From Candidatus Gorgyraea atricola (GTDB lineage: Bacteria > Omnitrophota > Gorgyraeia > Gorgyraeales > Gorgyraeaceae): a stretch of 64,000 nt of DNA. Position numbers and translations under genes: made by a program. Below, piece after piece: positions 9,064-57,307 of this stretch (position 1 is the stretch's first letter; each line of letters opens with the position of its first letter). The stretch lies in NCBI GenBank assembly GCA_030765235.1, contig JAVCCW010000029.1, positions 140,939 through 204,938 of the forward strand, written 5' to 3'. The notes below the pieces were generated by a model. That model was given only the letters and a program-made list of their open reading frames with translations. It was not told where the DNA came from and did no database searches.

Positions 9064-9073
9064 TGGAGGATGT

Positions 9074-10608: not shown

Positions 10609-10610
10609 CT

Positions 10611-10687: not shown

Positions 10688-10870
10688 CCCTACGCTCACA
10701 TGTGGCGATACTTCGCAGCAAGCTTCGGGTGGTAAACCACTTGACTTTAAAGCATGCTTGTCCTCCGAAGCATACTACAGAGATTGGCTATATTTGAGCG
10801 TAGGAGGACTTCGGGTGGCAAAGCCATCCATAACATGCTACTGTGAATAGCTATATGTGAGTGACGGGTG
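10688..10870. repeat. tRNA-trailer repeat block (family B), units bounded by CCTACGCTCACATG (or its reverse complement CATGTGAGCGTAGG)
   Basis: Shares long stretches (GCATGCTACGGGTGGCAAGCCA..., CGAAGCATACTACAGAGATTGGC..., GAGCGTAGGAGG) with the blocks at 17039-17215 and 17326-17443, which also follow tRNA genes. Confidence 0.7.
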
Positions 10871-10895
10871 ATAAACCATACCATCTTTAAGTGGC

Positions 10896-11750: not shown

Positions 11751-11758
11751 TACGACGC

Positions 11759-11833
11759 GGTGGCTATAGTGTAATGGCAGCACTAGAGATTGTGGTTCTC
11801 TTAGAGCGGGTTCAAATCCCGTTAGCCACCCCA
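11759..11833 (+). tRNA. tRNA-His (anticodon GTG) with encoded G-1
   Basis: GGTGGCTATAG...anticodon loop TTGTGGT...GGGTTCAAATCCCGTTAGCCACCCCA. Near-identical in the acceptor/T-arm to E. coli tRNA-His, including the extra 5' G. Confidence 0.8.
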
Positions 11834-11926
11834 GTTTTCTTGTAACATATTGATAATAAATGCGTTACTGGGATACCCCTGACGAGACGATTATAAGATT
11901 TTAAACAGGGGATAAGGAGTGAAAGC

Positions 11927-12199
11927 ATGGATTTAAACTCTATTAAAGAATCTATTGTTACAAAAGTATACCATCTCACTTCAGATACAAAAGTCCCTCT
12001 GCATAAACACGAAAAGAATGATGAAATTTTTTATTGTATAAAAGGCTCTGGTTTTGGAGTTTTAGAAGATGGAGAAGTAGAGTTAAGTATAGGAAAAGTA
12101 TTTATTGTTTCTGCTGGAACAATGCATTCGCTTAGAAGCGAAGAAAATCTTTATGTAAGTTCTTTTCTTGTTCCTGTAGTGGATGATAGCTTAGAATAA
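11927..12199 (+). CDS. Cupin-domain protein
   Basis: 90 aa with cupin motifs (PLHKHEKNDEIFYCIKGSG....G..........G....H). AT-rich codon usage. Confidence 0.6.
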   Translation: MDLNSIKESIVTKVYHLTSDTKVPLHKHEKNDEIFYCIKGSGFGVLEDGEVELSIGKVFIVSAGTMHSLRSEENLYVSSFLVPVVDDSLE

Positions 12200-12279
12200 T
12201 TTAAACTACATGCAATATTCTATTTGATCGATGGAGTTGGATAATAAACTAGTTCTAAACTCGCATAAGAAGAGACCCC

Positions 12280-12373
12280 ATGGTTTGACGCGGCCGCCTT
12301 TGGCGGCCTTGCTCACCATGGTCCTGAGCAAGCGAACTCGCAAGCTTAACTATTGCGAGCGCGTCGAAGGGCC
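12280..12373. repeat. GC-rich structured repeat (family E copy 2) with additional hairpins (CGCGGCCGCC-tttg-GCGGCC and a CCATGG...CCATGG pair)
   Basis: CCTGAGCAAGCGAACTCGCAAGCTTAACTATTGCGAGCGCGTCGAAGGG matches 10389-10437 apart from 3 substitutions. It sits in an otherwise AT-rich islet. Confidence 0.7.
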
Positions 12374-12502
12374 ATCCGCCTCCTTCGTGCATGGGGCGAA
12401 TCAAAAGGATCAAAGAGCAATTCTTAAAATCCCCTTGACATTTTACAGGATATGTTGTATACTTTTATACAGAGAGTTGTATAAATATATACAAGTAATT
12501 GT

Positions 12503-13096
12503 ATGAAAGACTACAGAATAGATAATAAGCTGTTGCTGGATACTATTAGTGCGTGGAATAGGTTTCTTAAGAGAAAGGTGCGCCTTATTTCCTGTGGTGG
12601 TACAGCCTTGACTCTTTTAGGAATAAAAGCATCTACTAAGGATATTGATTTAATAGTTCCTGATTTAAAAGAATACGAGTATCTTATATCAATTTTAGAA
12701 CAGCTGGGATACAAGTCTGTAACCGGCTCAGGGTGGACGAGGGGCGATGGTCTTGTCTTTGACTTCTTTAGAGGAAAATTTGTCCATACTACTGAATTAT
12801 TGGAGTCACCATTGAAAGAGAAAAATCATACTTTGATCAAAGAATTCAGCTATATCTACTTAGGAGTTCTTAATTATTACGATCTTATAATTAGTAAATT
12901 GTTTAGAGGTAATGGTGTAGACATCGAAGATTGCAGTTCTTTAATAAAGGCAAAACAAAAAGATATAGACTTGAAATTATTAGAGCAGAGATTCAAAGAA
13001 ACAGCCTCTTATGATATTTCAGAAGATAGGGTAAATAAAAATCTAAAGCATTTTTTGAGCACTGTTAAACAAAAAGGATTAAGCAATGGTCGATAA
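12503..13096 (+). CDS. Nucleotidyltransferase-fold protein (minimal NTase, GG...D.D motif)
   Basis: SCGGTALTLLGIKASTKDIDLIV fits the pol-beta-type NTase signature hG[GS]x9-13DxD. Overlaps the next ORF by 11 nt. AT-rich. Confidence 0.45.
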   Translation: MKDYRIDNKLLLDTISAWNRFLKRKVRLISCGGTALTLLGIKASTKDIDLIVPDLKEYEYLISILEQLGYKSVTGSGWTRGDGLVFDFFRGKFVHTTELLESPLKEKNHTLIKEFSYIYLGVLNYYDLIISKLFRGNGVDIEDCSSLIKAKQKDIDLKLLEQRFKETASYDISEDRVNKNLKHFLSTVKQKGLSNGR

Positions 13097-13751
13097 GAGT
13101 CTTTTGAGAAGATTAAATAAGTTAGGGTTCCCTTTATTTGAGACGGAAGAGGTGCAGGACGCAAATGCTACCTTAGCAGAAGTAGTGCAAAGTAAAGACC
13201 TTCGTCTATGGGAAGGATTTTCTTTATTATTGGCGAATAGCGCGGAAAAAGGACTTTTCGATTATGATGTGGTTAAGCATAGTCTTAAGAAGTTACCTGA
13301 TAAAGTTGATTTGACAGCGCTATTAATAATGTCACTTGCCCTTTATAGGACTTTAAATATAAAGTTTTCATGGGCAGATAAATTATATAAGAATTTAAAC
13401 GCCAAAAGTAAGAAAGAATTCAGCGCTCTTTTAAATAAGTTAAAAAAGGACGAAGACTTTAAACTTGGTGGGCGAGTGATGTCCAGTCAGAGATTGAAAA
13501 CTATATTTGCTAACTATTATAATCAAAGAGACTCGAGTCTTAGCGAATTGCTTTCAGCAAGAGAAGAATTAGGCCTTGAATACGCATTGTCACAGGTTTT
13601 TTCCCCTAAACAAAAAGAGCTTTTTTTGAAAAAGCTAAAAGGCGAAAAAATGACTAAGACAGAAAAAGAATATTACTCTAGGGCCGTAAAAAAGAAAGTC
13701 TTGGCATTGGCGAATACAGAATTACATCGTCTATCGCGCAAGATAGCTTGA
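13086..13751 (+). CDS. Hypothetical protein (partner of the NTase-fold protein)
   Basis: 221 aa, helical and Lys-rich. No HEPN R-X4-6-H motif found and no recognised domain. Confidence 0.35.
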   Translation: MVDKSLLRRLNKLGFPLFETEEVQDANATLAEVVQSKDLRLWEGFSLLLANSAEKGLFDYDVVKHSLKKLPDKVDLTALLIMSLALYRTLNIKFSWADKLYKNLNAKSKKEFSALLNKLKKDEDFKLGGRVMSSQRLKTIFANYYNQRDSSLSELLSAREELGLEYALSQVFSPKQKELFLKKLKGEKMTKTEKEYYSRAVKKKVLALANTELHRLSRKIA

Positions 13752-13816
13752 TTTAAATCTTGCTATTCTAACTTTCTGGATGTAGAATAATCCATCAAAT
13801 TTGCTTAGGAGGCACA

Positions 13817-14554
13817 TTGAGTAGAGATACAATGAGTAGAGATACAATGCTTTTATATGGCAGGAATTCGGTGTATGAGCGGTTGAAGGCTAATCCGAGG
13901 AGCATAAGGACTGTGTTTCTGCAGGATGGTATTGAGCTTTGGCATATTGAGAAATTGGTACGCAAGAATCATATAGAGATGGCGCGTGTGAGTCCGAGGC
14001 AACTGTCCAAGATGAAACACCCTAAGGACCTGCAGGGTGTGGTTGCCAAGGTGGAGAAGTTCAGCTATGCTGACTTTGATGATCTGTTGAATAAAAAGAC
14101 CACGCTTATTTTTCTGGATAGGCTTAATGATCCTCAGAATCTAGGTGTTATCATTCGAACAGCAGCGTGTTTTGGAGGATTTGCGATCGTTATACCTAAG
14201 TTTAATGCGTGCGAGGTTACAGAAGCGGTTTTACATGTTGCATCAGGCGGTGAGAATTTCATAGCAGTTAGTATGATCTCGAATATCTCAAGCTCCATAC
14301 TAAAGGCAAAGAAAAAGGGATACTGGGTCATGGGAGGCGTTGTTGGTGACGATGCGCAGGACATTAACAGTATTTCTATTCCTTTTCCTTTAGGACTCAT
14401 ATTAGGATCAGAAGGTGGAGGGATCCGTCATGGCATTGACAAGCAGCTGGATGTAAAGGCGCGTATACCCATGAAGGGCGCTAATCTTTCCTTTAATGTG
14501 GCGATCTCCTGCGCCATCTTTTGCCACGAGATAGCCAAGCAGAGAAAATCATGA
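13817..14554 (+). CDS. rlmB: TrmH/SpoU-family RNA 2'-O-methyltransferase (RlmB-like 23S rRNA Gm methyltransferase)
   Basis: N-terminal substrate-binding domain (LLYGRNSVYE.L...P..I..VFL) plus the SPOUT motifs NLGVIIRTAACFG and LGSEGGGI. The start is ambiguous because of a 15-bp tandem duplication giving MSRDTMSRDTM. Probable ATG at 13832 or 13847. Confidence 0.8.
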   Translation: MSRDTMSRDTMLLYGRNSVYERLKANPRSIRTVFLQDGIELWHIEKLVRKNHIEMARVSPRQLSKMKHPKDLQGVVAKVEKFSYADFDDLLNKKTTLIFLDRLNDPQNLGVIIRTAACFGGFAIVIPKFNACEVTEAVLHVASGGENFIAVSMISNISSSILKAKKKGYWVMGGVVGDDAQDINSISIPFPLGLILGSEGGGIRHGIDKQLDVKARIPMKGANLSFNVAISCAIFCHEIAKQRKS

Positions 14555-15099
14555 ATATTCAGGATGCCTGGGGAAAGGCGTTAAAAAAGACAAAGATAAT
14601 ACGTCCTCGCGCGCAGGAGCTACAGACCTTTTCTGACACGAATATCTCGTATACATTTTTGGCAGAGGCATTAGTGAATAAGGGCGATACTATTGTAAGA
14701 CAGGGCGAGGTTATGGTGGAAAAACCTGCGATCATACTACCTTCTAATCTGCCGCAGTTCGAGGGTTTTGATTTTGAGAAGGAATTAGAGATCGGTCACG
14801 AGATGGTCATGAATTTTCTTCTTGTAAGAGGTGTGAATTTTCCTTCCATGAAGTACAATAATAAAACAGCGTCGCTTAATATTTACGACGGCCACATAGA
14901 AAAGGCGATTTCGTATCACTCTGATATGTTGCAGCGCAAGGAAGACGTACATTCCGGGCTGGTTGTCGGACCTGAGGACTGCTGGCAGTTTTCAGTGCTG
15001 ATCTTTATTTGCACCCAGATCGCCAAGTCAGCCAATAGCGACATAAGAAGATTGTTAGAGCGTTTCAATAAAGAAGACAGACCCCATTCCAAATTCTAG
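14551..15099 (+). CDS. Hypothetical protein
   Basis: Internal ATG (MNIQDAWGK...) overlaps the rlmB stop by 4 nt (ATGA coupling). No recognised domain. Its 3' end runs into the family-A repeat. Confidence 0.45.
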   Translation: MNIQDAWGKALKKTKIIRPRAQELQTFSDTNISYTFLAEALVNKGDTIVRQGEVMVEKPAIILPSNLPQFEGFDFEKELEIGHEMVMNFLLVRGVNFPSMKYNNKTASLNIYDGHIEKAISYHSDMLQRKEDVHSGLVVGPEDCWQFSVLIFICTQIAKSANSDIRRLLERFNKEDRPHSKF

Positions 15100-15185
15100 T
15101 CGATAGTCAATTTGCTGTTTGTAACTAACTGCGGGCAATTCTCGTAGATTATTTGATGATTTTTAAGAATTTGGAACGGGGCAAG
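15082..15185. repeat. Family-A 104-bp repeat, diverged single copy
   Basis: CCCCATTCCAAATTC...TTTTAAGAATTTGGAACGGGGCAAGCC. Ends and length match the 914-1121 units while the interior has diverged. Confidence 0.8.
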
Positions 15186-15207
15186 CCTCGCTAATCCCCA
15201 CCACCTA

Positions 15208-16212
15208 ATGCAAAAGAAAAATATCAAGAATTTTACAATTGAAGAATTAAAGGAAGAACTGGGCAAGCTCTCAGAGGCATCTTACAGGGCGAATCAGCTT
15301 TTTGAGTGGATATATAAGAAAGGCGCGCGCAGTTTTGATGAGATGGGTAATCTGCCGAAATCTTTCAGGGATAAACTTGGTAGAGTTTTTTGCCTGGGAG
15401 GTGTTAAGCTAAAGGAGAGGCTTAAATCCAGGGATGGCACTGAGAAGTTTTTGTTTGAATTAGAGGACGGTGGTCTTATAGAGAGCGTACTTATACCAAG
15501 CAGCTCAAGAAAAACGATCTGCCTTTCCACGCAGGTCGGATGTAAATTTGGGTGTGCGTTTTGCGCAAGCGGCCTCAAAGGATTCAAGAGAGACCTTTTT
15601 CCGTCAGAGATCCTTGACCAGATTATTCTTGTGGGCGGTGAGATAACAAATTTTGTGTTTATGGGCATGGGCGAGCCGCTGGATAATTTTGAGAATCTGA
15701 AAAGAGTGATCGAGATAATGAATTCTCCATTAGGTCTGGGTATCGGCGCCAGGAGAATAACTGTTTCAACGTGCGGGATAATACCCGGGATCAGGAGATT
15801 TAAGGAAATAGATCTTCAAGTAAATCTCTCGATATCTCTTCACGCTGCCAATAATAAACTTCGAAGTAGTCTGATGTCTATCAATAAAAAGTATCCTTTG
15901 GAAGAGTTGATAGCAGCATGTAATGATTTTTCAGGAAGGATGATCACGCTCGAATATATATTAATCAAGGATAAGAATGATTCACTAAGGGACGCAAATG
16001 AACTTTCTCACATAGCTAAAAAAATAAAGGCCAAGATAAATCTCATTCCTTATAGTCCTGTGTCTGGGAAGAGATTCAAGGTGCCCACTGGGAAAGATAT
16101 TGAGCTATTTCAGAAGAGACTGGTCAAAAACAGCGTGAATGTAACTCTTCGCGAGTCAAAAGGTAAAGACATCTTTGCTGCCTGCGGCCAGCTGGCAATG
16201 AAAAATAGTTGA
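15208..16212 (+). CDS. rlmN: 23S rRNA m2A2503 / tRNA m2A37 methyltransferase RlmN (radical SAM)
   Basis: ANQLFEWIY, the CxxxCxxC cluster (CKFGCAFCASG), GMGEPL, and a C-terminal Cys (FAACGQL). Confidence 0.85.
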   Translation: MQKKNIKNFTIEELKEELGKLSEASYRANQLFEWIYKKGARSFDEMGNLPKSFRDKLGRVFCLGGVKLKERLKSRDGTEKFLFELEDGGLIESVLIPSSSRKTICLSTQVGCKFGCAFCASGLKGFKRDLFPSEILDQIILVGGEITNFVFMGMGEPLDNFENLKRVIEIMNSPLGLGIGARRITVSTCGIIPGIRRFKEIDLQVNLSISLHAANNKLRSSLMSINKKYPLEELIAACNDFSGRMITLEYILIKDKNDSLRDANELSHIAKKIKAKINLIPYSPVSGKRFKVPTGKDIELFQKRLVKNSVNVTLRESKGKDIFAACGQLAMKNS

Positions 16213-16243
16213 AAGAATCTGACCCTCTTTTTGTGTCTATTAT

Positions 16244-16277
16244 AATAGTAGCCCAGGTTTAAACCTGGGTTACTATT
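16244..16277. repeat. Family-D PmeI-core palindrome (AATAGTAGCCCAGGTTTAAACCTGGGTTACTATT)
   Basis: Seen directly, one mismatch in the arms. Lies between rlmN and radC. Confidence 0.85.
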
Positions 16278-16296
16278 AAAAAAAGGGGGTTTTATT

Positions 16297-16971
16297 ATGG
16301 CTATAGATAGCTGGCCTAAAGATGAAAGGCCAAGGGAGAGGCTTTTTAAGCACGGAGAGCACACGCTGAATAGTTCAGAGCTTCTGGCGATATTGTTTGG
16401 ACAAGGGTCAGAAGGCAAGAGCGCAGTGGAATTAGGGAGCGAACTCATAACGCATTTTAAGACATTTCGCAATATGAGTCATACTGATATTGTTCAGTTG
16501 CAGGGTTTCAAAGGCATGGGCAGGGCAAAGATCGCCAGGCTTAGAGCAACATTTGAGATAGCCAGGAGATTTATGAGCGAGGAAAAACAGCCTGGATACA
16601 GGGTCAGATCGCCAAGAGAGGTAGCTGATTTTTTAATGCCAAGGTTAAGGGACCTAAAAAAGGAGATATTTAAAATATTGCTTCTAGATGGCAAAAATAA
16701 TATAATAGATATACTTGAGGTAGAGGAAGGTTCGGTTGATCGGGCAGCGCCTCAGATCAGGGAGGTAATGGTAAAGGCGCTCCAGAATTTTGCCACAAGC
16801 ATTATTGCGGTACATAATCATCCATCTGGAGACCCTGAGCCGAGTGAAGAGGATGTCTTGTTTACTGAGAATCTTAAGGCAGCAGGTGAAGTGCTTCAGC
16901 TGAACGTGCTGGATCATATTATAATAGGAGACAATAGGTTTTATAGTTTCACTGACGAAAAGCGCCTATAG
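16297..16971 (+). CDS. radC: RadC-like JAB-domain protein (UPF0758)
   Basis: HNHPSGDPEPSEEDVLFTENL JAMM motif and the N-terminal helix-hairpin-helix region. Its 3' end overlaps the first 10 nt of the downstream tRNA. Confidence 0.85.
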   Translation: MAIDSWPKDERPRERLFKHGEHTLNSSELLAILFGQGSEGKSAVELGSELITHFKTFRNMSHTDIVQLQGFKGMGRAKIARLRATFEIARRFMSEEKQPGYRVRSPREVADFLMPRLRDLKKEIFKILLLDGKNNIIDILEVEEGSVDRAAPQIREVMVKALQNFATSIIAVHNHPSGDPEPSEEDVLFTENLKAAGEVLQLNVLDHIIIGDNRFYSFTDEKRL

Positions 16972-17038
16972 CTCAATCGGATAGAGTGGCTGGCTTCGAA
17001 CCAGTAGGTTGGAGGTTCAAATCCTCCTAGGCGCGCCA
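16962..17038 (+). tRNA. tRNA-Arg (anticodon TCG by manual folding)
   Basis: Acceptor GCGCCTA/TAGGCGC, anticodon stem GCTGG/CCAGT with loop CTTCGAA, T-arm GGAGGTTCAAATCCTCC, CCA encoded. Confidence 0.65.
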
Positions 17039-17215
17039 CCCTACGTTCACATGGGGTTAATCTTCGTAGCATACTACGGATGGCAAGCCACCTTTAGTCT
17101 TCGAAGCATGCTACAGAGATTAGCAACGCATGAGCGTAGGAGACCTTTGCTCAAATATAGCGATTCTTCGTAGCATGCTACGGGTGGCAAGCCATTTGTG
17201 TGTTGACTACATATC
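17039..17215. repeat. Family-B tRNA-trailer repeat block (two units)
   Basis: CCCTACGTTCACATGGGG...CTTCGTAGCATACTACGGATGGCAAGCCACC...CATGAGCGTAGGAG...GATTCTTCGTAGCATGCTACGGGTGGCAAGCCA. Shares its ends and internal segments with 10688-10870 and 17326-17443. Confidence 0.7.
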
Positions 17216-17249
17216 TGTTCTATGATATATTACTGAAACTTGGGTAGTC

Positions 17250-17325
17250 GCCCCCATAGCTCAGCTGGTAGAGCAGATCACTCTTAATGATAAGGTCACA
17301 GGTTCGAGCCCTGTTGGGGGTACCA
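17250..17325 (+). tRNA. tRNA-Lys (anticodon CTT)
   Basis: Acceptor GCCCCCA/TGGGGGT, D-arm TAGCTCAGCTGGTAGAGC, anticodon loop CTCTTAA, T-arm ACAGGTTCGAGCCCTGT, CCA encoded. Confidence 0.7.
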
Positions 17326-17443
17326 TCCTACGCTCACATAGAGCGATTCTTCGTAGCATGCTACGGGTGGCAAGCCACCTAATTTTAAAAAGGGCTTGCC
17401 CGCCGAAGCAAACTTCGAAGATTAGCAGCACATGAGCGTAGGC
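17326..17443. repeat. Family-B tRNA-trailer repeat (one unit)
   Basis: TCCTACGCTCACATAGAGCGATTCTTCGTAGCATGCTACGGGTGGCAAGCCACC...CACATGAGCGTAGGCGGG. Confidence 0.7.
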
Positions 17444-17528
17444 GGGCGGATGGTGAAACTGGCAGACACGCTAGCCTTAGGAGCTAGTGGAGCAATCCAT
17501 GGAGGTTCGACTCCTCTTCCGCCCACCA
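17444..17528 (+). tRNA. tRNA-Leu (anticodon TAG), long variable arm
   Basis: Acceptor GGGCGGA/TCCGCCC, anticodon loop CTTAGGA, extra arm, T-arm GGAGGTTCGACTCCTCT, CCA encoded. Confidence 0.7.
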
Positions 17529-17610
17529 AATCCGCCGAAGGCGGATTTGATCCTGAGCGAGCGTAATGAGGCAACGAATAGGAGCCTCATAGCGAAGTGA
17601 AGGACCTTTG
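17529..17610 (+). ncRNA. tRNA-trailer two-hairpin structured element (copy 1)
   Basis: AAATCCGCC-GAAG-GCGGATTT, then GATCCTGAG, then TGAGGC-AACGAATAGGA-GCCTCA. The paralogous copy after tRNA-Gly keeps the loops but changes both stems compensatorily. Confidence 0.5.
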
Positions 17611-17710
17611 ACAAAGTGAATGAGTAGAATTTGTCCCTCAGTGCCTACAATGCTCCTGCTCGTCGCATTGTTTAACGGCACTTCGGGATGAAATTTACTT
17701 CGTAAATTTC

Positions 17711-17785
17711 GCGGGAGTAGCTCAGTGGTAGAGCTTTTCGTTGCCAACGAAAAGGTCGCGGGTTCGAGCCCCGTCTCCCGCTCCA
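17711..17785 (+). tRNA. tRNA-Gly (anticodon GCC)
   Basis: Acceptor GCGGGAG/CTCCCGC, anticodon loop TTGCCAA, T-arm GCGGGTTCGAGCCCCGT, CCA encoded. Confidence 0.75.
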
Positions 17786-35923: not shown

Positions 35924-35949
35924 GTAGGCCAGGTTTAAACCTGGCCTAC
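35924..35949. repeat. Family-D palindrome GTAGGCCAGGTTTAAACCTGGCCTAC
   Basis: A perfect 26-bp palindrome in the hrcA leader. Confidence 0.9.
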
Positions 35950-42427: not shown

Positions 42428-42430
42428 TGA

Positions 42431-42560
42431 CGAGGTTTCGTAAAGTTGCGTTAGGTTTCGTTAGGTTGCGTAAGGTTGCAGAAGCAAAATTTGAATTCTA
42501 GTTTTTTGTAACTTTACGAAACATTACGAAACTTCACGAAACCTTACGTAACCTCCATTG
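42431..42560. repeat. Long imperfect inverted repeat built from TTACGAAAC / GTTTCGTAA-type units, upstream of accD
   Basis: Left arm GGTTTCGTAAAGTTGCGTTAGGTTTCGTTAGGTTGCGTAAGGTTGC, right arm GTAACTTTACGAAACATTACGAAACTTCACGAAACCTTACGTAACC. Confidence 0.7.
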
Positions 42561-44336: not shown

Positions 44337-45620
44337 ATGAAATTTCTAGTGTATTTTATAATTTCAGCGGTGGTATTATTTTTGAGCTACAGGATCAGTC
44401 TGTCTAAGGCCTTAACGTGGTCTGCATTGGCTAGTGTATTTATTCTGATCAGGGGGCTTAGAGCGTTTCCATATGAGACTATGGTCTTTGTATTAGCTAT
44501 AAATGCCCTACCTTTTATTACGGATAGATTCAAGAAAGACTTTGATCACCATAAAGAGTCTATGCGCGCCAGATTTGAAGAAGTAAAGACGCGTTATGAG
44601 GATTTGGTGCGCCAGAATAATGGCGAGATAGAATCAAACCTTGAGAGAGAAAAGAAATTACAGCAGGTGCTTTCCCTGTACGAGATCTCTAAAGACATGT
44701 CCGGCTGTCTCTCGCTCGAGGATATATTAAGTATATTTTCGTCGACGCTGAGAAAGTCTTTCAGGTTCAGGGCTTCCAGGCTCGCGCTTTTAAATGATTC
44801 CCGAGAGGTAGTATCGGTTTATCAGATTAAGACCGGACAGACGATCAGCAAGGTCAGTCCTGATGACTTCGATAAAGAACTCGCTGTTATTATGATCGAA
44901 GAAAAAAAAGTGATCTCACTGTTTTCTCAAGTCGAGGCACGACTCTTAAAAAGGCTGGCCATTGTAAAGGATTTTGGGACGCTTGTAGCGATTCCTCTTT
45001 TTGTCGAGGAAAGGCTCGCGGGGATATTGTATATAGAAAATCTCCCTAGGCCGTATTTTGAGAATTTTATTATTCTTGGTAGCCAGTTTGCGATACAGTT
45101 TCAGAAGGTTGTCCTCTATAAGAAGGTGCAGGAGGCGTCTATTACAGATTCTCTGACAGGTGTTTCTACGAGGAGGCATTTTTTAGAGAGGTTGGCAAGG
45201 GAGCTAAGGCGTTCAATGCGTGGCAAGACGAATCTGTCCTTTCTTATGCTGGACCTGGACCATTTTAAGGAAAAGAATGATCGCCTTGGCCATTTGGTAG
45301 GGGATGTTGTTTTAAAAGAGGTAGCAGGTATTATCAAATCTAATCTGCGGGAAATAGATATTTTAGGAAGATACGGCGGCGAAGAATTTGCAATAGCGCT
45401 TGCTGATACAGATAAAGAGGGAGCCTTGCAGGTAGCTGAGCATATCAGGAGAAGCATCGAGTCTGCTATATTCAAGGCCTACGACGAGGTCACATCCAGC
45501 ACTGTAAGCATAGGCATAAGTACTTTTCCAGAAAACGGAGCAGACGCAAACTCCCTAATCGAATCCTCCGACCGCGCCCTGTACAAGGCAAAGGAGTCCG
45601 GTCGCAATCGGGTGTGTTGA
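44337..45620 (+). CDS. Membrane-anchored GAF-GGDEF diguanylate cyclase
   Basis: DSLTGVSTRR...LMLDLDHFKEKNDRLGHLVGD...RYGGEEFAIAL, with an intact GGEEF active site. Confidence 0.85.
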   Translation: MKFLVYFIISAVVLFLSYRISLSKALTWSALASVFILIRGLRAFPYETMVFVLAINALPFITDRFKKDFDHHKESMRARFEEVKTRYEDLVRQNNGEIESNLEREKKLQQVLSLYEISKDMSGCLSLEDILSIFSSTLRKSFRFRASRLALLNDSREVVSVYQIKTGQTISKVSPDDFDKELAVIMIEEKKVISLFSQVEARLLKRLAIVKDFGTLVAIPLFVEERLAGILYIENLPRPYFENFIILGSQFAIQFQKVVLYKKVQEASITDSLTGVSTRRHFLERLARELRRSMRGKTNLSFLMLDLDHFKEKNDRLGHLVGDVVLKEVAGIIKSNLREIDILGRYGGEEFAIALADTDKEGALQVAEHIRRSIESAIFKAYDEVTSSTVSIGISTFPENGADANSLIESSDRALYKAKESGRNRVC

Positions 45621-45850
45621 CAAGCCAAAGGAAGTCCTGTTCGCTCAAGTGAAACTTTCCCCCTCGCTTTGCTCGGGGTCGCCTTTCATTTTGCATTTTG
45701 GTGGGGGTGAAAAAACTTACCCGACACCATAGGTGTCGGGGTCGAACAGTTTTCGCCCTTTTTGTCTCATAAAATGTGACAAAATAAACCCCCAAAATGC
45801 AAAATGAAAGGCTAAATTTTCAATTCGCTCCCAGGACTTCCTTTGGCTTG
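45621..45850. mobile_element. MITE-like 230-bp element with 19-bp perfect terminal inverted repeats and nested internal palindromes
   Basis: CAAGCCAAAGGAAGTCCTG...CAGGACTTCCTTTGGCTTG at the ends. Internal IR CTTTCATTTTGCATTTTGGTGGGGG/CCCCCAAAATGCAAAATGAAAG and a central hairpin CCCGACACCATAGGTGTCGGG. Confidence 0.6.
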
Positions 45851-46017
45851 GAATAATTTGTTGCAGTAGGGTGTACCCAAATAGGACGTTTGTAGTATAG
45901 TATATAATATAGTACTTAAATTTTAGATTGCAAATGCCGTATTTGTATGATATAATTAAAATTACTAGATAGATAGAATAAATATATAGCCTTATAAAAA
46001 AACAAGGCTTATTTTTT

Positions 46018-48345
46018 ATGTGGATTATGAGAAAGTTTAAAAAACATTACAATTTCAATATAAAGATTATATTCTTCATAGTTTCTGTTACATTTATATT
46101 TACAACCATTGTTCATTCTTGCCCAATTTCAAGAGGCTCACTAAGAGTTCCTTTTTTATTTCAAGACACAAGTAAAAAAGAGATAAAAGATAAGCCTAAT
46201 GCATTTATAATTAATGGAAAGAAACTATCCCCTTTGATTGCACCAACGGCAATTACTCACCGATTTGAAAGTGATGATTCTAGTGTTGCATGTATTCGTG
46301 AGCTCGCGCCAAATGTCGCATGTGACCTTGTTATAAAGTCTGAGACTCAAGTTTTTATTTTTTTACCAGGAGATATAGAAGAATTAAAGAAAAATTTTAC
46401 TTTAAGCGAGGCAGAGGAGTTGCTACAAAAAGCTAAATTTGGAAAGAATTCTGGTTTCTTCAAGCTGGGTAAAGAAGGAAGCATCCCTGAGTCAATGGGT
46501 ATTGAATATATAGAATTAGTTCAACAGGCACTAGTCGAATTGGGCGAAACAAGAGAGTTTATTGCGATAGGAAACACCAGCAAGGCCAAAACACAAGAGG
46601 AAGCCATAATAATGGCAGGACTGTGGGCCGGATTTTTAAAAATGCCTTATGTTAAGCTTGAGATCAGAGATCAAGATCTAATGACAAAGAATGATGAAAT
46701 AATAGATACTGTAGAACGATTGATCAAACTTAACAAGGATATTAAAATCCTCCCCTTAATAGGAAAAGGAATAACAAAAAAAATGCTAAAGAAATTATTG
46801 AACTTGAATCAAGTCATTGCGTTGCGTATCGAAGGAACGCAACCAGGCTCAGGTAAAGGTTTGGGAACAGAAAAGGAGAAAGATCGAATAAAAAAGATTA
46901 TTACTTGGGTTAAAGAGATAAAACCAGATATTCCATTGATTGCCGAATGTGGTATAGGTATGCCTGAACATGCTAAGGAAGCAATGAATATGGGATTCGA
47001 TGCTGTTTTAGTAAACGCGGCTATCACTGAATCTGATACTCCAGTTGAACTCGCTGTTGAATTCGCCAAAGCTGTTAACGATGCTACAAGGGTATCGCAA
47101 CCACATATCTGGCTTAAAAGAGAAAATATAGATAAATTTTATACCCAGTTCTTGAAGAAAAATATATTATCTGAGATTCTCGAAAAGGTAAATGAGGCGA
47201 TTAGACAAGGCCGCACTCGCAAGTTTTTTGTTGGCAAATATGAGTTACTTAAATTGCCGTCATCAAATATAGTTATGGCAAAGATTACATTTCCTGATTT
47301 GGTTAAGCCGAGAGCAACTACAAATGCAATAGAAGCAGGTAAGAGCACTCTTGTAAAGCCAAGTTTTTTAAAAGTAGACCAAGATGATTTACTATATGAT
47401 TTAGATAAAATAGGATTACCATATAATTTTTTAGTTAGACATGCACCTTTTTGTAAAGATCAATTTATGTTTTGTAACAAGAAAGATAAATATATTGGCT
47501 TTGTACCGTTAATGATTATGTATGTTTTAGGAAAGATAAACCCTGATATTAGATGCTATCATCAATCTTCAGGTGCTGGAGCCACAGATCCCACTTTTCC
47601 TCACTATTCGTTCTTTTTTAAGATAGATATGAATGATATAAAGAATCCTGTTGTAGAAAATGAACTATTCAATACATCAATCGATCTAAGCGCACCTATT
47701 TTATCATTACCAACAAAGAAGATGCAAGACTATCCCAACTTACCTATTAATATGCTACCAAATTATCCTGGGGCTAATTTTATCATTGAAGGGGAGGATA
47801 TAGTAAAAAATATCTTCATCACTCTGTTTATAATAAGATTGTTGGATGAGTTAAAATTATCATATAATTTTATTTATGCTGATGGTCGTTATTATATTTT
47901 TGTAAAATCAACTCAATATGGCGGAGAAGGAATTTTTAGTACTCTGAAAGTAGGGATATTAGAAACAATCGGTTATTTTGTTCTTGATGGAAGATCTTGT
48001 AAGGAGATTGAAGAGTCTTTAGTCAGAGACAGAATGAATCTGGAGTTTAACAGCTTAGACGGCCATATGTATGAGGAAATATTGAAAGACATTTTGTCTA
48101 AAGAGAAAGACCTCGAATTTGTTTACAAAAGACTAAAAAAACTTGATCAATGGTTTGCGGTTTTAGAATCACTAAACCTAGCTCCTGTAGAAGAAATTTT
48201 ATCACGATTATCTCCGATATTGTCAGATAGAAAAAATAACATAAGTGCTTTTATTGAATCATTGCCTATAGATAAAAATCTTATATCTGAGTTACTAGGT
48301 GATAAATTGCTAGACCAGGTTAGGGCCATTGATTTTTATTTGTAG
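46018..48345 (+). CDS. Large signal-anchored protein with a central ThiG-like (thiazole synthase) TIM-barrel domain; the N- and C-terminal extensions are unknown
   Basis: Residues ~195-365 parallel ThiG: YVKLEIRDQDLMTKNDEIIDTVERL, GTQPGSGKGLG, IPLIAECGIGMPEHAKEAMNMGFDAVLVNAAI (compare ThiG [26 protein letters not shown]). Hydrophobic N-terminus. Strongly AT-rich, no obvious SD, flanked by the MITE and a terminator. Confidence 0.5.
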   Translation: MWIMRKFKKHYNFNIKIIFFIVSVTFIFTTIVHSCPISRGSLRVPFLFQDTSKKEIKDKPNAFIINGKKLSPLIAPTAITHRFESDDSSVACIRELAPNVACDLVIKSETQVFIFLPGDIEELKKNFTLSEAEELLQKAKFGKNSGFFKLGKEGSIPESMGIEYIELVQQALVELGETREFIAIGNTSKAKTQEEAIIMAGLWAGFLKMPYVKLEIRDQDLMTKNDEIIDTVERLIKLNKDIKILPLIGKGITKKMLKKLLNLNQVIALRIEGTQPGSGKGLGTEKEKDRIKKIITWVKEIKPDIPLIAECGIGMPEHAKEAMNMGFDAVLVNAAITESDTPVELAVEFAKAVNDATRVSQPHIWLKRENIDKFYTQFLKKNILSEILEKVNEAIRQGRTRKFFVGKYELLKLPSSNIVMAKITFPDLVKPRATTNAIEAGKSTLVKPSFLKVDQDDLLYDLDKIGLPYNFLVRHAPFCKDQFMFCNKKDKYIGFVPLMIMYVLGKINPDIRCYHQSSGAGATDPTFPHYSFFFKIDMNDIKNPVVENELFNTSIDLSAPILSLPTKKMQDYPNLPINMLPNYPGANFIIEGEDIVKNIFITLFIIRLLDELKLSYNFIYADGRYYIFVKSTQYGGEGIFSTLKVGILETIGYFVLDGRSCKEIEESLVRDRMNLEFNSLDGHMYEEILKDILSKEKDLEFVYKRLKKLDQWFAVLESLNLAPVEEILSRLSPILSDRKNNISAFIESLPIDKNLISELLGDKLLDQVRAIDFYL

Positions 48346-48438
48346 GTGTTAGAGGTATTAGTAAAGTATTAGGGACGGTTCTCAGCCCAATCCCAGGCCT
48401 GTCTTTAAAATTCAATAAAGTCCAATCAGTTTTCACTT

Positions 48439-48484
48439 AACTTTACATTTTAGGTCTTGCTTTAAATGTAAAGTTATTTTTTTG
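48439..48484 (+). terminator. Rho-independent terminator (12-bp stem AACTTTACATTT...AAATGTAAAGTT, then a T-tract)
   Basis: Seen directly, downstream of the 775-aa ORF. A TTGACT-17-TATTAT promoter for glk follows. Confidence 0.75.
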
Positions 48485-48518: not shown

Positions 48519-49430
48519 GTGGCAATGAGTAAACGGCTTAAGATAGGGATTGATTTGGGGGCTACTCGGATAAAGATGGGGCTTGTGGGCCGAGGTGGTA
48601 GGGTTTTGGCTCGGCGCGAGGTGGATACTCCTTTTAATGCGAAAAGAGTCGAGCTTATTAGTATTTTAGTGGGGAATATAGATTATATAATAAAAGAATC
48701 TAGATTTAATAGGAGAGATATCGCGGGCATAGGAATAGGTGTGCCTGGACCTGTGGACTCAAAGAAGGGTATAGTGCGTTATTTTCCTAACATAAAAGGA
48801 TGGGAGAATGTCCCACTTAAGTCTATATTGCAGAGACGATTAGGTTTAAAGGTCAACCTGGACAATGACGTGAACGCAATGACACTTGCAGAGCACAAGT
48901 TTGGCGCTGGCAAAGGCGCGGATAATCTCGTCTGCCTTACTCTTGGCACAGGTGTTGGCGGCGGCATTATACTTAGTGGAGAGCTATATAGAGGCAGTAC
49001 AATGGTCGCGGGAGAGATAGGCCATATTCCTATAAATGAAAAAGGACCCCGGTGTAATTGCAGAGGGACTGCGTGTATTGAAAGATATGTAGGAAACAGA
49101 TATATACTGAATAGAGCAAGAAAGATCTTCGGAAAAAATATAACACTTAAGCGCATAGATAAACTTGCAAAGAACGGCAATAAAAAAGCAATAGGTATTT
49201 GGGCTGATGTTGGCATAAAGCTAGGCGTCATGCTTACAGGTGTAGTAAATCTCTTAAATCCTGACAAGATCATTATAGGTGGTGGTGTTTCAAAGGCAGG
49301 CGAGTTGATTCTAAAGCCTCTGAGACAAGAGTTAAAGACACGCGCAATGAAAGACCCTGCTGCTCACATAAAGATAGTTCGCGCAAAGCTTGGCACTGAC
49401 GCAGGAATAATCGGAGCATCCTTACTGTGA
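48519..49430 (+). CDS. glk: ROK-family glucokinase
   Basis: GTG start. IGIDLGATRIKMGLV, the ROK Zn motif CNCRGTACIERY, and GGGV. Confidence 0.85.
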   Translation: MAMSKRLKIGIDLGATRIKMGLVGRGGRVLARREVDTPFNAKRVELISILVGNIDYIIKESRFNRRDIAGIGIGVPGPVDSKKGIVRYFPNIKGWENVPLKSILQRRLGLKVNLDNDVNAMTLAEHKFGAGKGADNLVCLTLGTGVGGGIILSGELYRGSTMVAGEIGHIPINEKGPRCNCRGTACIERYVGNRYILNRARKIFGKNITLKRIDKLAKNGNKKAIGIWADVGIKLGVMLTGVVNLLNPDKIIIGGGVSKAGELILKPLRQELKTRAMKDPAAHIKIVRAKLGTDAGIIGASLL

Positions 49431-51631
49431 AATCCCAAATCCCAAATTCAAAATCCCAAATAAATCCCAAATCCCAAATCCCAAAACATGGTTGGGATTT
49501 TGAAATTGGGATTTATTTGGTAGTATTGGTATTATTGGGATTTGGGATTTTCGTGCATATTTTTTTTATGCCCGATGTAGCTAGCGCTCAAGAGGCCGCA
49601 CGGCCCGTAGAAGTAAACGGCGATCAGGTGGAGTATTTCCCAAAAGAAAAAAAGGTCACTGGTGTTGGCGACGTGTCTGTTGATTACGAGGACGTGAGAC
49701 TTACGTGCGATAAGATAACAGTGTACACAGAGACAAAAGACGCGGACGCGGAAGGGAATGTACTCATAAAGAGCCTGGCTAGCGAAATAAAGGGCGAGAG
49801 GGTAAAATATAATTTTGAAACTAAGGTAGGAGAAATATTAGAACCCAGGATAAAATCAGGCGAGTGGTATGCTGGAGGAGACAGGGCAGAGTTTGTCTCA
49901 GATGGTTCAATAAATGTCGGAGAGGGTTACATGACAAGCTGCGATCTCGACAAGCCGCACTATAAGATCAGCTCAAAGAATATCATAATATATCCTGACA
50001 ATAAGGTCGTGGCAAAGAATGTGATCTTCAAGGTCGGCAAGGTGCCGGTCGCGTATTTGCCGCGATATGATTATTCTCTGGATACAGACTGGCCCACAGT
50101 GGATGTGATCCCCGGTAAAAAGAAAAAATGGGGCGCATTTGCCCTTACCAGCTACAGGTATGCGTTGAACGAAGACAATAAGCTGACGCTCAGGCTGGAC
50201 GAAAGAGAGAAATGGGGATTTGGCGAGGGCATTGATTATAAATATGGATCCGGAGAGGTTGGCGAGGGTATTCTGCGGACATATTATACACATCAGAGAG
50301 ATAGGGATAGGGGCGAGGTTGGCATAAGGGCGGAAGAGGAAAGATTCAGGATACAGCTGCGGCATCGCTCAGATATAACTGATACAACAAGCGCCATAAT
50401 CGAATATCACGAGCTCAGTGACGTGGATTTCACAAAGGATTTTTTTTACAGGGAAGAGTATGACAGCGAATCATCACCTGAGTCATATTTTTATCTATTA
50501 GATACGCAGCCAGAGTATTCCCTGAGCCTTCTGGCGCGCAAAAGGATGAATCGATTTCAGAGCGTTGTTGAGCGCTTACCAGAAGCAAGGTTTGACCTTA
50601 AAGACCAGAAGATGTTTGATCTGCCAATCTACTTTAAAACAGACACGGCTTTTAGCAGTCTGAGCTCTAAGACAGGAAACAGCTCTACAGATAGCGATGT
50701 CATAAGATTTGATACATATAATAAGTTAAGCGCGCCTCTGCACCTCGTAGATTTCCTGAGTGTTTCACCTTTTGTTGGGACCCGGGGCACCTTTTATACC
50801 AAGGACATAGACGGTGACGAGGAAGAATTCAGGACAGCCTTTTACACAGGTGTAGACCTGAGTACAAAGTTCGCAAAGACATATGATGCATCAGGTAGTT
50901 TTCTCGGAGTTGATTTTGACAGGCTTCATCACGTCATTACTCCTACGATAGAATACGAGTATATACATGAGCCATCTATGACGCCGGGTAATCTGCAGCA
51001 GTTCGACGATATTGATAATGTAGAGAGAAAAAGCGCCTTTGGCCTGGGCTTTGAAAACAGGCTACAGACAAAGAGATTAGTCGATGGTAAATTAAGGACA
51101 GTAGATCTTGGATGGTTTTTATTGACAGGAGATTATCTGTATAAGCCGGAAAACGGTAGCCGTTTTTCAGATGTAAAAGGAGATCTGGAGCTTACACCTT
51201 TTGACTGGCTCAGGATAGAGTCAGATACAGAGTATGATCCTGCTACCAGAGATTTTCAGAGCTGGAATGTGGATTTGAATATCAATAAGAATGAAGACTG
51301 GCAGCTGGGGTTTGGTTCCAGGTACTGGCAGGATGAAGAACATGAACTTACCTCGCAATTATTCTATAGGCTGAATAATGAGTGGGCGGTCAGGCTTTTT
51401 GGCAGATATGATTTAAAGGAGGTCGAACCTGATGGCCATAAGATAATCAATAGGTTTGACACAAAGGAGATAACTGTTATAAAAGATTTACACTGCTGGA
51501 TAGCTGAGGCAAGTCTTGAGATAGGCAGGGATGGCGGCATAACTGCCTGGTTTACCATGAAGCTCAAGGCCTCCCCCAAAGTGCCCTTTGATTTTGGAGA
51601 CTACTATGCGTATCCAAAGGAGAAACCATGA
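49427..51631 (+). CDS. lptD: LPS-assembly outer-membrane protein LptD (OstA)
   Basis: The OstA N-domain (VNGDQVEY...GNV.I........A..I.Y) and a long beta-barrel region. The true start may be an internal TTG (LVVLVLLGFGIFVHIFF...) downstream of the heptamer array. Confidence 0.75.
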   Translation: MKSQIPNSKSQINPKSQIPKHGWDFEIGIYLVVLVLLGFGIFVHIFFMPDVASAQEAARPVEVNGDQVEYFPKEKKVTGVGDVSVDYEDVRLTCDKITVYTETKDADAEGNVLIKSLASEIKGERVKYNFETKVGEILEPRIKSGEWYAGGDRAEFVSDGSINVGEGYMTSCDLDKPHYKISSKNIIIYPDNKVVAKNVIFKVGKVPVAYLPRYDYSLDTDWPTVDVIPGKKKKWGAFALTSYRYALNEDNKLTLRLDEREKWGFGEGIDYKYGSGEVGEGILRTYYTHQRDRDRGEVGIRAEEERFRIQLRHRSDITDTTSAIIEYHELSDVDFTKDFFYREEYDSESSPESYFYLLDTQPEYSLSLLARKRMNRFQSVVERLPEARFDLKDQKMFDLPIYFKTDTAFSSLSSKTGNSSTDSDVIRFDTYNKLSAPLHLVDFLSVSPFVGTRGTFYTKDIDGDEEEFRTAFYTGVDLSTKFAKTYDASGSFLGVDFDRLHHVITPTIEYEYIHEPSMTPGNLQQFDDIDNVERKSAFGLGFENRLQTKRLVDGKLRTVDLGWFLLTGDYLYKPENGSRFSDVKGDLELTPFDWLRIESDTEYDPATRDFQSWNVDLNINKNEDWQLGFGSRYWQDEEHELTSQLFYRLNNEWAVRLFGRYDLKEVEPDGHKIINRFDTKEITVIKDLHCWIAEASLEIGRDGGITAWFTMKLKASPKVPFDFGDYYAYPKEKP
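49431..49560. repeat. Array of AATCCCA heptamer repeats arranged as a long imperfect inverted repeat (AAATCCCAAATCCCAAA... / ...TTGGGATTTGGGATTT)
   Basis: Seen directly at the glk/lptD junction. It is translated as the KSQIPNSKSQINPKSQIP N-terminal extension in the track ORF. Confidence 0.85.
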
Positions 51632-56351: not shown

Positions 56352-57296
56352 ATGAAATTTTTAGTTACAGGCGGCGCAGGTTTTATTGGGTCGCATATTG
56401 TTGAAAGTTTAGTAAATAATGGCGATAAAGTGACAGTTATCGATGATTTAAGTTCAGGTCAGCTTAGAAACTTAGAATCTGTAAGAGGTAAGATAAAGTT
56501 TGTAAAGGCGGATATAAGGGACAAGGGACAAGGGACATGGGACATGCAGGGGATTGATTATGTTTTGCACCAGGCAGCATTGAGGAGTGTACCAAAGTCA
56601 CTTGGGAATCCAAAACTTTACAATGATGTAAACATAAACGGGACCTTGAATATCCTGACCGCGGCAAAAGATGCAAAGGTAAAAAGAGTGGTATTTGCCT
56701 CCTCAAGCTCTATCTACGGAGAGACAAAGACGCTCCCTAACAAAGAAGATTTTTACCCGCTTTTGATATCGCCTTACGCTCTTACAAAGCTGGCAGGTGA
56801 ATACTACTGCAGGATCTTCAGTGAGATATATGGACTGGAGACAGCAAGCCTTCGTTATTTCAATGTGTTCGGGCCAAGGCAGAGCCTTGAGAATGAATAT
56901 GCTGTTGTTATACCGAAGTTTATAACCTGCATACTAAAAGATGAACAGCCGCCTGTTCATGGTGACGGCAAACAGACACGTGACTTCACATATGTAGAAA
57001 ATGTTGTTCAGGCCAATATTAAAGCTGCCACAATGCCAGGCGTAAAATGTGAGGTTTTTAACATCGCTTGTGGAAAGGCATACACAGTTCTTGATATAGT
57101 CAAATACACAAATAAGATCCTCAAAAAAGACATAAAACCAAAGCTAGATCCAGTGAGACCAGGGGATGTAAAACATACACTCGCAGACATAAGCAAGGCA
57201 AAGAAACTCATAAAATTTGATCCTAAGGTTAGTTTTGAAGAGGGGCTTGCGAAGACGGTAGAGTATTTTTCTAGACTCCATGTAGGCCAGGTTTAA
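56352..57296 (+). CDS. NAD-dependent nucleotide-sugar epimerase/dehydratase (UDP-GlcNAc/UDP-Glc 4-epimerase-like)
   Basis: FLVTGGAGFIGSHIVE and YALTKLAGEYY. It contains an in-frame 8-mer x4 tandem repeat (GGGACAAG/GGGACATG). Confidence 0.75.
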   Translation: MKFLVTGGAGFIGSHIVESLVNNGDKVTVIDDLSSGQLRNLESVRGKIKFVKADIRDKGQGTWDMQGIDYVLHQAALRSVPKSLGNPKLYNDVNINGTLNILTAAKDAKVKRVVFASSSSIYGETKTLPNKEDFYPLLISPYALTKLAGEYYCRIFSEIYGLETASLRYFNVFGPRQSLENEYAVVIPKFITCILKDEQPPVHGDGKQTRDFTYVENVVQANIKAATMPGVKCEVFNIACGKAYTVLDIVKYTNKILKKDIKPKLDPVRPGDVKHTLADISKAKKLIKFDPKVSFEEGLAKTVEYFSRLHVGQV

Positions 57297-57307
57297 ACCT
57301 GGCCTAC
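57282..57307. repeat. Family-D palindrome GTAGGCCAGGTTTAAACCTGGCCTAC overlapping the epimerase stop codon
   Basis: A perfect 26-bp palindrome. Confidence 0.9.

Follow-up and report, generated by a model that had tools for sequence, protein, structure and literature searches.

A dispersed palindromic repeat of Gorgyraea-type Omnitrophota with a branched and probably selected fold

The element described here lies at positions 45621-45850 of a 64,000-nucleotide (nt) stretch of the genome of Candidatus Gorgyraea atricola (assembly GCA_030765235.1, contig JAVCCW010000029.1), referred to below as the window, and directly follows a gene for a GGDEF protein. It is very probably one copy of a dispersed, structured repeat that is under selection. 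Comparison of the copies shows, at the level of sequence, a seven-helix fold that appears to be held by compensatory change and to evolve at a rate about 10-fold below that of synonymous sites, as would be seen under selection for a single-stranded conformation, either of RNA or of single-stranded DNA (ssDNA). The explanation that we favor, and to which we give slightly less than an even chance when it is taken as a whole, is that the window holds one member of an old family of branched palindromic repeats, about 230-270 nt long and low in copy number, in Gorgyraea-type Omnitrophota, the selected fold of which may serve as a hairpin or terminator module of transcripts. All positions are those of the window, the sense strand of the family, designated A, is the window minus strand, and related loci are denoted by L numbers.

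An earlier note, made from the letters of the window, had described a 230-bp element with perfect 19-bp terminal repeats, a nested inverted pair and a central hairpin, and each of these was recovered (Table 1): the terminal arms are exact reverse complements of each other, and the inner pair of 24 nt is 96% complementary, a single T being bulged or mismatched. Two matches of the 19-nt terminal repeat were seen in 0 of 100 dinucleotide shuffles of the window. Beyond the helices listed in that note, the fold contains a 9-bp helix that pairs 45650-45658 with 45814-45822 and two more hairpins, a small one at 45660-45678 and another at 45760-45784. Folding, which the note had proposed as a check, gave -117 kcal/mol for the plus strand of a 242-nt stretch, compared with -60.6 +/- 4.8 in shuffled sequences (z = -11.7), and -116 kcal/mol for the minus strand (z = -10.5).

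Several features distinguish the minus strand. The window copy scores 282.9 bits on this strand and 38.1 bits on the plus strand with covariance model R1, which was built from seven distinct sequences, and the minimum free energy (MFE) is lower on the minus strand in five of the six copies. Read in this direction, the central hairpin is GC-rich and is followed by six U residues in the manner of an intrinsic terminator, an arrangement that is kept in L031, and in L038 despite a replaced stem sequence. The internal loops in P3 and P4 are purine-rich, and the two copies of GAGCGAA, at 45640-45646 and 45824-45830, form a direct rather than an inverted repeat and face each other across an internal loop, where tandem G.A pairs enclosing two G-C pairs could arise.

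The note had also proposed a search for further copies. Apart from the orthologous site next to the GGDEF gene, related copies were found at three other, unrelated intergenic loci, all in metagenome contigs that apparently derive from one sample series. These loci were reached by protein searches with translations of the element, through spurious open reading frames (ORFs) called across the copies. Their neighboring genes are unrelated to one another, and the copies in L031, L036 and L038 have the opposite orientation to their flanking genes from that of the window copy. Because copies exist at three other loci and the element is absent from distant relatives, it is a dispersed repeat and not the unique terminator that the note had held out as the alternative. 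No second copy was found in the 64-kb window, and covariance model R1 returned none further in 239 kb made up of the window and the related loci. Among 185,579 GTDB representative genomes, a scan with the exact 19-nt end gave seven single matches of 19-21 nt, none of which, by BLAST, extends into the element; in the JGI metagenomes it gave 10 single matches, again none extending, which is a weak negative for this lineage because the L008 contig, which carries the exact 19-mer, was not returned. These isolated matches of 19-21 nt in the GTDB and JGI sets are due to chance. Plasmid, phage and viral-contig (IMG/VR) collections contained no genuine match to the element; one viral 19-mer match was rejected because it sits in a coding region. 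A 978-aa tandem-repeat protein (P0123) returned by the protein search was likewise rejected as a spurious sum of 18 weak matches. As far as the searches reach, the family thus appears to be dispersed and of low copy number. No paper that mentions Omnitrophota together with miniature inverted-repeat elements was found, and the terms MITE, palindrome and inverted repeat do not occur in a 2026 preprint on complete Omnitrophota genomes.

Covariation was scored on an alignment of the four loci comprising 83 base pairs, in which standard pairs occupy 94% of the alignment cells. Nineteen of the 83 pairs have changed on both sides with pairing kept, compared with 7.4 +/- 1.9 in shuffles (none of 500 shuffles reached the observed value), and a control in which the partners were slid against each other gave at most five such pairs. 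Covariation is strong in five of the eight scored helices; in the central hairpin, L038 has seven pairs changed on both sides and has kept the T-run. The terminal arms differ by subfamily, with CAAGCC-AAAGGAAGTCCTG in one and TAAGCTAAAAGGAAGGGYTG in the other; the terminal repeat in L031 and L036 starts with TAAGCTAAAAGGAAGG, and a 1-nt insertion in these two copies is mirrored in both arms. The outer arms of L038 (ATCCAGACGAGGCTTT / AAAGCTTCATCTGGAT) have no sequence relation to those of the window, and they occupy the same position relative to the conserved blocks. Conservation of sequence is concentrated elsewhere: the core, the internal loops and the block CTAAATTTTCAATTCGCTCC are near-invariant, and variable columns number 7 of 84 in the core and 28 of 87 in the stems (Fisher p = 1e-4).

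The rate at which the orthologous copies have diverged points in the same direction. Between the window, L008 and L011 the element shows 7-11 differences in 230 nt (K = 0.03-0.05), and the flanking genes of the same genomes show synonymous divergence (dS) of 0.28-0.64 and nonsynonymous divergence (dN) of 0.02-0.10. The neutral expectation from the flanking dS would be 64-90 differences in the element, and both the adjacent flanks and the promoter region of the neighboring ROK gene are visibly more diverged than the element itself. Since the paralogous copies are 8-25% apart, a recent burst does not explain the similarity of the orthologous copies. The slow rate, about 10-fold below that of synonymous sites, therefore suggests purifying selection for the single-stranded fold and not selfish drift.

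As a model of how such a fold might act, the element would be transcribed within neighboring transcripts. In the window orientation, which is that of the GGDEF gene, the whole 230-nt hairpin would lie in the 3' untranslated region of the GGDEF transcript, where it could hinder read-through and block 3' exonucleases. When the orientation is reversed, as in L031, L036, L038 and the window minus strand, the central hairpin with its U6 tract could serve as an intrinsic terminator; in the window, this minus-strand terminator would stop antisense transcription coming from an AT-rich island to the right of the element. We regard such a role as a hairpin or terminator at the transcript level as a real possibility that cannot yet be called probable. 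It is doubtful, without being far-fetched, that the element represents an undescribed class of molecule limited to Gorgyraea-type Omnitrophota, namely a seven-helix RNA or strand-specific folded ssDNA of about 230 nt with an invariant core, a self-facing GAGCGAA loop, an embedded terminator and a specific cellular or protein partner, which purifying selection would have maintained at fixed loci and which would be more than a generic hairpin repeat.

As to how the copies came to be dispersed, the usual signs of transposition were sought and are missing. The note had proposed a search for target-site duplications, which yielded none at any locus: no direct repeat adjoins the element in L008, L011, L036, L031 or L038, and in the window there is only the 2-nt TC, which is compatible with chance. 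No flanking motif is common to the loci, and the family has no common terminal sequence, pairing alone being kept. Neither an autonomous element combining the ends of A with a transposase (in GTDB, JGI, plasmids, phages and viral contigs) nor a recombinase or Y1 gene (in the window or beside any copy) was found, and the only Y1 gene is that of L053. Insertion sequence (IS) elements of the IS21 family, encoding IstA and IstB, lie about 850 nt from the copy in L032 and L033, two in L032 (929-5455, in opposite orientations) and one in L033 (316-2491), and they have no sequence in common with the element. The past spread of the family would not have depended on a DDE transposase that is specific for terminal repeats and makes target duplications; more likely it would have involved an enzyme that recognizes folded ssDNA, for instance a RAYT/IS200-type Y1/HUH transposase.

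Several observations make a structure-recognizing HUH enzyme a reasonable candidate for that spread: the spacer next to the GGDEF gene is a palindromic hotspot, a RAYT-like gene lies in the same spacer of a relative, and GTAG palindromes are present in the window. The relative is L053 (GCA_018896715.1, JAHILR010000110.1, 5298-5987), the GGDEF protein of which is 68% identical; its spacer between the GGDEF and ROK genes contains a gene for a 161-aa Y1_Tnp/RAYT-like protein on the minus strand, flanked by a perfect 15-nt inverted repeat containing GTAG (ATAGAGACGTCTACC / GGTAGACGTCTCTAT) and by a second pair of 16 nt. The window has four 26-nt palindromes of the form GTAG[G/C]CCAGGTTTAAACCTGG[G/C]CTAC, at 5490-5515, 16248-16273, 35924-35949 and 57282-57307, one of them imperfect, and the copy at 5479-5526 forms a perfect palindrome of 48 nt. 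These palindromes, which resemble repetitive extragenic palindromic (REP) sequences of the GTAG type, suggest that the window genome may have a RAYT/REP system. Mobilization of the element by an HUH-type enzyme is, all the same, unlikely in our judgment.

Several points weigh against the explanation that we favor. With regard to spread, the link between Y1/RAYT and the element is circumstantial, the repeats that flank the L053 gene have no sequence similarity to the element, and neither GTAG nor CTAC occurs at or within its ends. With regard to a role in RNA, no conserved promoter was found upstream of the element across the four loci, and because the terminator hairpin has a central position in the element, RNA that ended at it would lack the outer helices, so that the terminator and the whole fold cannot both function in the same RNA. 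Strand preference is also unclear, with about 12 G.U cells on the minus strand and about 9 cells that are G.U only on the plus strand; the near-equal counts of G.U and A.C are weak evidence for a constraint at the DNA level, or for palindrome-templated repair, over selection on one RNA strand. Such repair can also yield paired changes, the covariation comes from only four independent loci, and a palindrome in DNA gives the same covariation signal. Finally, the low divergence of the orthologues could in principle reflect recombination among co-occurring strains.

These points bear directly on the alternatives. The conserved fold could instead belong to a family of stand-alone structured non-coding RNA (ncRNA) genes of about 230 nt, encoded on the minus strand and acting in trans or in an RNA-protein particle, in which case the loci would be paralogous genes. 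The covariation in five of eight scored helices together with the invariant loops, the divergence about 10-fold below synonymous sites, and the minus-strand features (the GAGCGAA direct repeat, the purine-rich loops of P3 and P4, the hairpin with U6 and the lower MFE in five of six copies) are all consistent with such genes. So is the result with Rfam 15, in which no family reached the gathering threshold and the weak matches vary by copy (plant miRNA precursors, manA-II, BTnc231). However, the four loci share no promoter and their flanks are unrelated, a terminator in mid-element would cost the RNA its covarying 3' arms, and the wobble asymmetry between the strands is not decisive; moreover, the near-perfect global palindrome, the palindromic neighbors in L036 and L011 and the absence of the element from close relatives fit mobile DNA better, and we consider ncRNA genes unlikely. 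A quite unlikely explanation, in our view, is that the element acts at the DNA level only, as a folded ssDNA substrate of a recombinase or HUH enzyme (in the manner of attC or REP/RAYT) or as a protein-binding cruciform, with no role in RNA. It would account for arms that keep structure and not sequence, for the lack of target duplications and for compensation that is equally good on both strands, and it agrees with the RAYT-like gene in the same spacer of L053 and with the way in which A in L008 and an A-like element in L009 abut the same flank, TCTGAAGGCCC, next to identical GGDEF proteins. Nevertheless, no recombinase or Y1 gene accompanies any copy, the element has neither the R'/R'' cores of attC nor GTAG-hairpin ends, and purifying selection on an inert substrate at a fixed locus over a dS of about 0.5 is hard to explain.

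The note itself had offered two readings, a miniature inverted-repeat transposable element (MITE) or a large structured ncRNA. Dispersal of the copies was confirmed and the selected structure fits the ncRNA option, but the target duplications, shared ends and transposase partner of a MITE were not found. A classical MITE would derive from an IS by deletion, would depend for its movement on a DDE transposase that acts in trans and binds the 19-bp repeats, and would be selfish and without host function. The element's small size (230 nt, under about 600 bp), non-coding and intergenic nature, perfect terminal inverted repeats, copies at four loci with an empty site in more distant relatives, and the IS21-family elements within 1 kb of the L032/L033 copy would agree with this origin. 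It is made improbable by the lack of target-site duplications at any locus, by terminal sequences that are conserved in pairing only and an interior that is the most conserved part, the reverse of usual MITEs, and by orthologous copies far more conserved than neutral sites; in addition, neither the 185,579 GTDB representatives nor the JGI metagenome set has a further pair of the 19-mer end, and the element has no similarity to the ends of the neighboring IS21 elements. That the element is a unique terminator or regulatory structure of the GGDEF gene is very improbable. Its very stable fold and its start one base after the stop codon are what such a structure would have, but the copies beside unrelated genes and in both orientations refute a GGDEF-specific terminator, the sole terminator-like hairpin with a T-run belongs to the other strand, relatives have a terminator hairpin of their own between the stop codon and the element, and GGDEF orthologues at 68-70% identity lack the element. 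A small protein is hardly tenable as an explanation. ORFs were called across the copies (P0121, P0122 and P0124, and a 101-aa minus-strand ORF at 45490-45795 in the window), it was these called ORFs that made the copies findable, and a single minus-strand frame stays open over 57 or more codons in every copy. The called ORFs differ in frame, start and end between copies, however, no Pfam domain is found on the window ORF or on P0121 and P0122, the substitutions track base pairing and not codons, and the ORF of the window overlaps the GGDEF gene in antisense.

Among known systems, the REPINs, which are REP doublets mobilized by RAYT Y1 transposases and form hairpins with frequent compensatory changes (Bertels & Rainey 2011, PMC3116915), stand closest, together with MITEs that have functional cores. 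Like them, the element is non-coding, intergenic and dispersed, forms as a whole one long hairpin of ssDNA or RNA with compensatory changes, and lacks target duplications; the likeness extends to its context, given the GTAG palindromes of the window and the RAYT-like gene in the same spacer of L053. REPINs are about 70-110 nt long, however, and their ends (GTAG plus a REP hairpin) are most conserved and their spacer variable, whereas the element is 230 nt long with variable ends and an invariant center, has three side hairpins, no GTAG-hairpin ends and no linked RAYT gene, and apparently occurs in low copy number.

Of the bacterial MITEs with functional cores, the Correia or NEMIS elements of Neisseria and the ERIC elements of enterobacteria are imperfect palindromes of 100-250 nt that lie in transcribed intergenic DNA in either orientation, fold in mRNA and can terminate or stabilize transcripts or be processed; Correia elements have conserved 26-bp terminal repeats and TA target duplications and number hundreds of copies. 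The present element resembles these in being palindromic, intergenic and found in either orientation, but it lacks the hallmarks of Correia elements, having no conserved terminal repeats and no target duplications, and hundreds of copies were not seen in the searched collections. The PATEs derived from IS200/IS605 depend on recognition of structure and strand, make no target duplication, have separate subterminal hairpins and insert 3' of a fixed tetra- or pentanucleotide. Direct copies of GAGCGAA near both ends, an asymmetry typical of HUH-mobilized elements, and the lack of target duplications recall PATEs, but the element is one global hairpin without a common flanking motif. With the ncRNA families of Rfam 15 it has in common a multi-helix structure, covariation and conserved loops, and it differs in that no family matches at threshold. 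From the sequences compared, the element appears to fall outside both the DDE-type MITEs, as it lacks shared ends, target duplications and a partner element, and the REPINs, as it lacks GTAG-hairpin ends. The combination of an invariant core, covarying arms, no target duplications and a slow rate is unlike most bacterial MITEs. The Omnitrophota are uncultured, and the element adds a repeat family whose copies can be aligned, whose fold is backed by covariation and for which a covariance model works; it may serve as a test case for the passage of a palindromic repeat into a structural module retained by the host, or for a new class of RNA.

Table 1. Positions of the family A element, its helices and flanks in the window, and its copies at other loci.
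Feature	Position	Strand	Remarks
TGA stop codon of the GGDEF gene	45618-45620	plus	Element begins at the next base
Branched palindromic element, family A	45621-45850 (230 nt)		Inverted repeats and folding; covariance model R1
Helix P1, left arm: terminal inverted repeat, 19 nt, CAAGCCAAAGGAAGTCCTG	45621-45639		Covaries with 45832-45850 across loci
TTCGCTC, left copy (GAGCGAA on minus strand)	45640-45646	minus	Kept at 4 of 4 loci; L038 has one G for A
Helix P2, left arm, TGAAACTTT	45650-45658		Pairs with 45814-45822; 8 pairs, none varies
Small hairpin P3 (CCCC-TC-GC-TTT-GC-TC-GGGG)	45660-45678		Folding
Helix P4, left arm: inner inverted repeat, 24 nt	45681-45704		3 pairs changed on both sides
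Helix P5, left arm, GGGTGAAAAAAC	45705-45716		In minus-strand reading, the U-tract GUUUUUUC after hairpin P6
Central hairpin P6, CCCGACACC-ATA-GGTGTCGGG	45720-45740	minus	Followed by TAAGTTTTTT; terminator-like; 7 pairs changed on both sides
Helix P5, right arm, GTTTTCGCCC	45749-45758		Folding and covariation alignment
Hairpin P7, TTTTGTCTCAT-AAA-ATGTGACAAAA	45760-45784		2 pairs changed on both sides
Helix P4, right arm: inner inverted repeat	45789-45812		Pairs with 45681-45704
Helix P2, right arm, AAATTTTCA	45814-45822		Pairs with 45650-45658
TTCGCTC, right copy (GAGCGAA on minus strand)	45824-45830	minus	Inside the invariant block 45812-45831
Helix P1, right arm: terminal inverted repeat, 19 nt, CAGGACTTCCTTTGGCTTG	45832-45850		Exact reverse complement of 45621-45639
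Right flank, GGAATAATTTGTTGCAGTA	45851-45869		Common to L008 and L011, not to the other three loci
Copy in L031-L034	40-90 nt upstream of an SPFH/Band_7 gene		Insertion of about 37 nt in the small hairpin; protein search
Copy in L035-L037	Beside another palindromic repeat		Protein search
Copy in L038-L040, divergent	About 100 nt upstream of a nitroreductase gene		Protein search

The small hairpin P3, which is expanded in L031, is formed in L038 by another sequence that folds into the same hairpin. A second palindromic family, designated B, with ends around CCCAGACCAGTGG, adjoins the element in L011 (about 10637-10825) and in L036 (657-866) and has no copy in the window.

The history of the site next to the GGDEF gene can be traced in some detail. 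The GGDEF ORF extends over 44337-45620 (Pfam GGDEF, E = 1e-46), and the position of the element right after this gene, as given in the earlier note, is exact. Its protein shows 100% identity to one from Candidatus Gorgyraea atricola, and the related loci were reached through contigs that encode homologues of it. An element that is 95-96% identical to the window copy, across an alignment of 249-250 nt that takes in about 19 nt of right flank, is present 3' of the orthologous gene in L008 (protein 88% identical) and in L011-L014 (82%). Because the right flank at 45851-45869 is shared by the window, L008 and L011, all three have their copy at one site, and this segment is, on the same comparison, best taken as flank and not as element. 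In the L008 and L011 relatives the GGDEF stop codon is TAA and is followed by 37-70 nt before the element; in L008 this interval consists of a terminator hairpin after the stop and a spacer that ends in GGGCCTTCAGA. These 37-70 nt are missing in the window, and the TGA stop there is completed by the GA found just before the element in the relatives, from which we infer a deletion between the GGDEF stop and the element in the window genome.

The same spacer has no element in relatives whose GGDEF protein is 68-70% identical (L025, L027 and L054): in L027 the GGDEF gene is followed by an 87-bp spacer and ROK, L054 has a short spacer, and L025 has a methyltransferase cassette in this position. 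Presence at 82-100% GGDEF identity and absence at 68-70% show that the element was gained in the GGDEF-ROK spacer of an ancestor of the 82-100% clade, that is, of the three sampled genomes. L009, the GGDEF protein of which is identical to that of L008, carries a different, distantly A-like element that shares the motifs TGAGCGAA and GCTCGTCCCGCCCTTTTG and lies at the end of the contig (9540-9656). The GGDEF-ROK spacer appears to be a hotspot, which independently received element A, other palindromic repeats, the RAYT-like gene, the methyltransferase cassette and a ThiG-like island. A resemblance between the left repeat and the 3' coding sequence of the GGDEF gene (45583-45595 and 45620-45632, ACAAGGCAAAGGA and ACAAGCCAAAGGA, 12 of 13 nt) is weaker in L008 and L011 and is probably due to chance.

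The earlier note had placed the element at the left border of this AT-rich island, and the position holds, since the GC content drops from 0.49 to 0.24-0.34 just right of the element. The AT-rich segment, at 45870-48436 (GC 0.24-0.38), holds a 775-aa ORF at 46018-48345, which matches a ThiG/TIM-barrel-like domain at residues 169-355 only and is without a family match in the remainder; PADLOC gave no defense-system match for the segment. L011 has neither the segment nor the ThiG-like ORF, and ROK comes 665 bp further on there; homology with the relatives reaches about 19 nt beyond the right repeat, to 45869. The element thus adjoins the left edge of an inserted segment but predates the island.

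A 40-nt terminator-like hairpin (TTAACTTTACATTT..AAATGTAAAGTTA) followed by a T-run occurs in the window at 48437-48476 (T-run to 48485), in L008 at 9615-9656, in the opposite orientation, and at 3539-3577, and in L031 at 9028-9067. In L008 and L009 it comes after the GGDEF stop, L008 has it between dnaK and dnaJ as well, in the window it follows the ThiG-like ORF, and L031 also carries it; it looks like a small family of repeated terminators.

Other repeats were noted elsewhere in the window. At 42428-42560, between DUF1015 and accD, there is a palindrome of about 130 nt composed of 10-11-nt tandem repeats (GTTTCGTWAR... / ...CTTACGAAAC), with a fold z of -6; it is absent from L008 and L011, where DUF1015 and accD are 1 nt apart, and it is another recent palindromic insertion. 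The start of an LptD-like ORF (49427-51631) contains dense direct and inverted repeats of AAATCCCAA and TTGGGATTT at 49430-49550. An inverted-repeat family, GGGGCACGCCCCATTCCAAATTCT... / ...AGAATTTGGAACGGGG, is found at 914-1125, 10491-10537 and 15082-15181, and one of these sites lies just upstream of the tRNA genes at 10531-10684. The region 10531-17782 contains seven tRNA genes in two clusters, and a 40-nt imperfect inverted repeat (17102-17141 and 17326-17365) brackets one of them.

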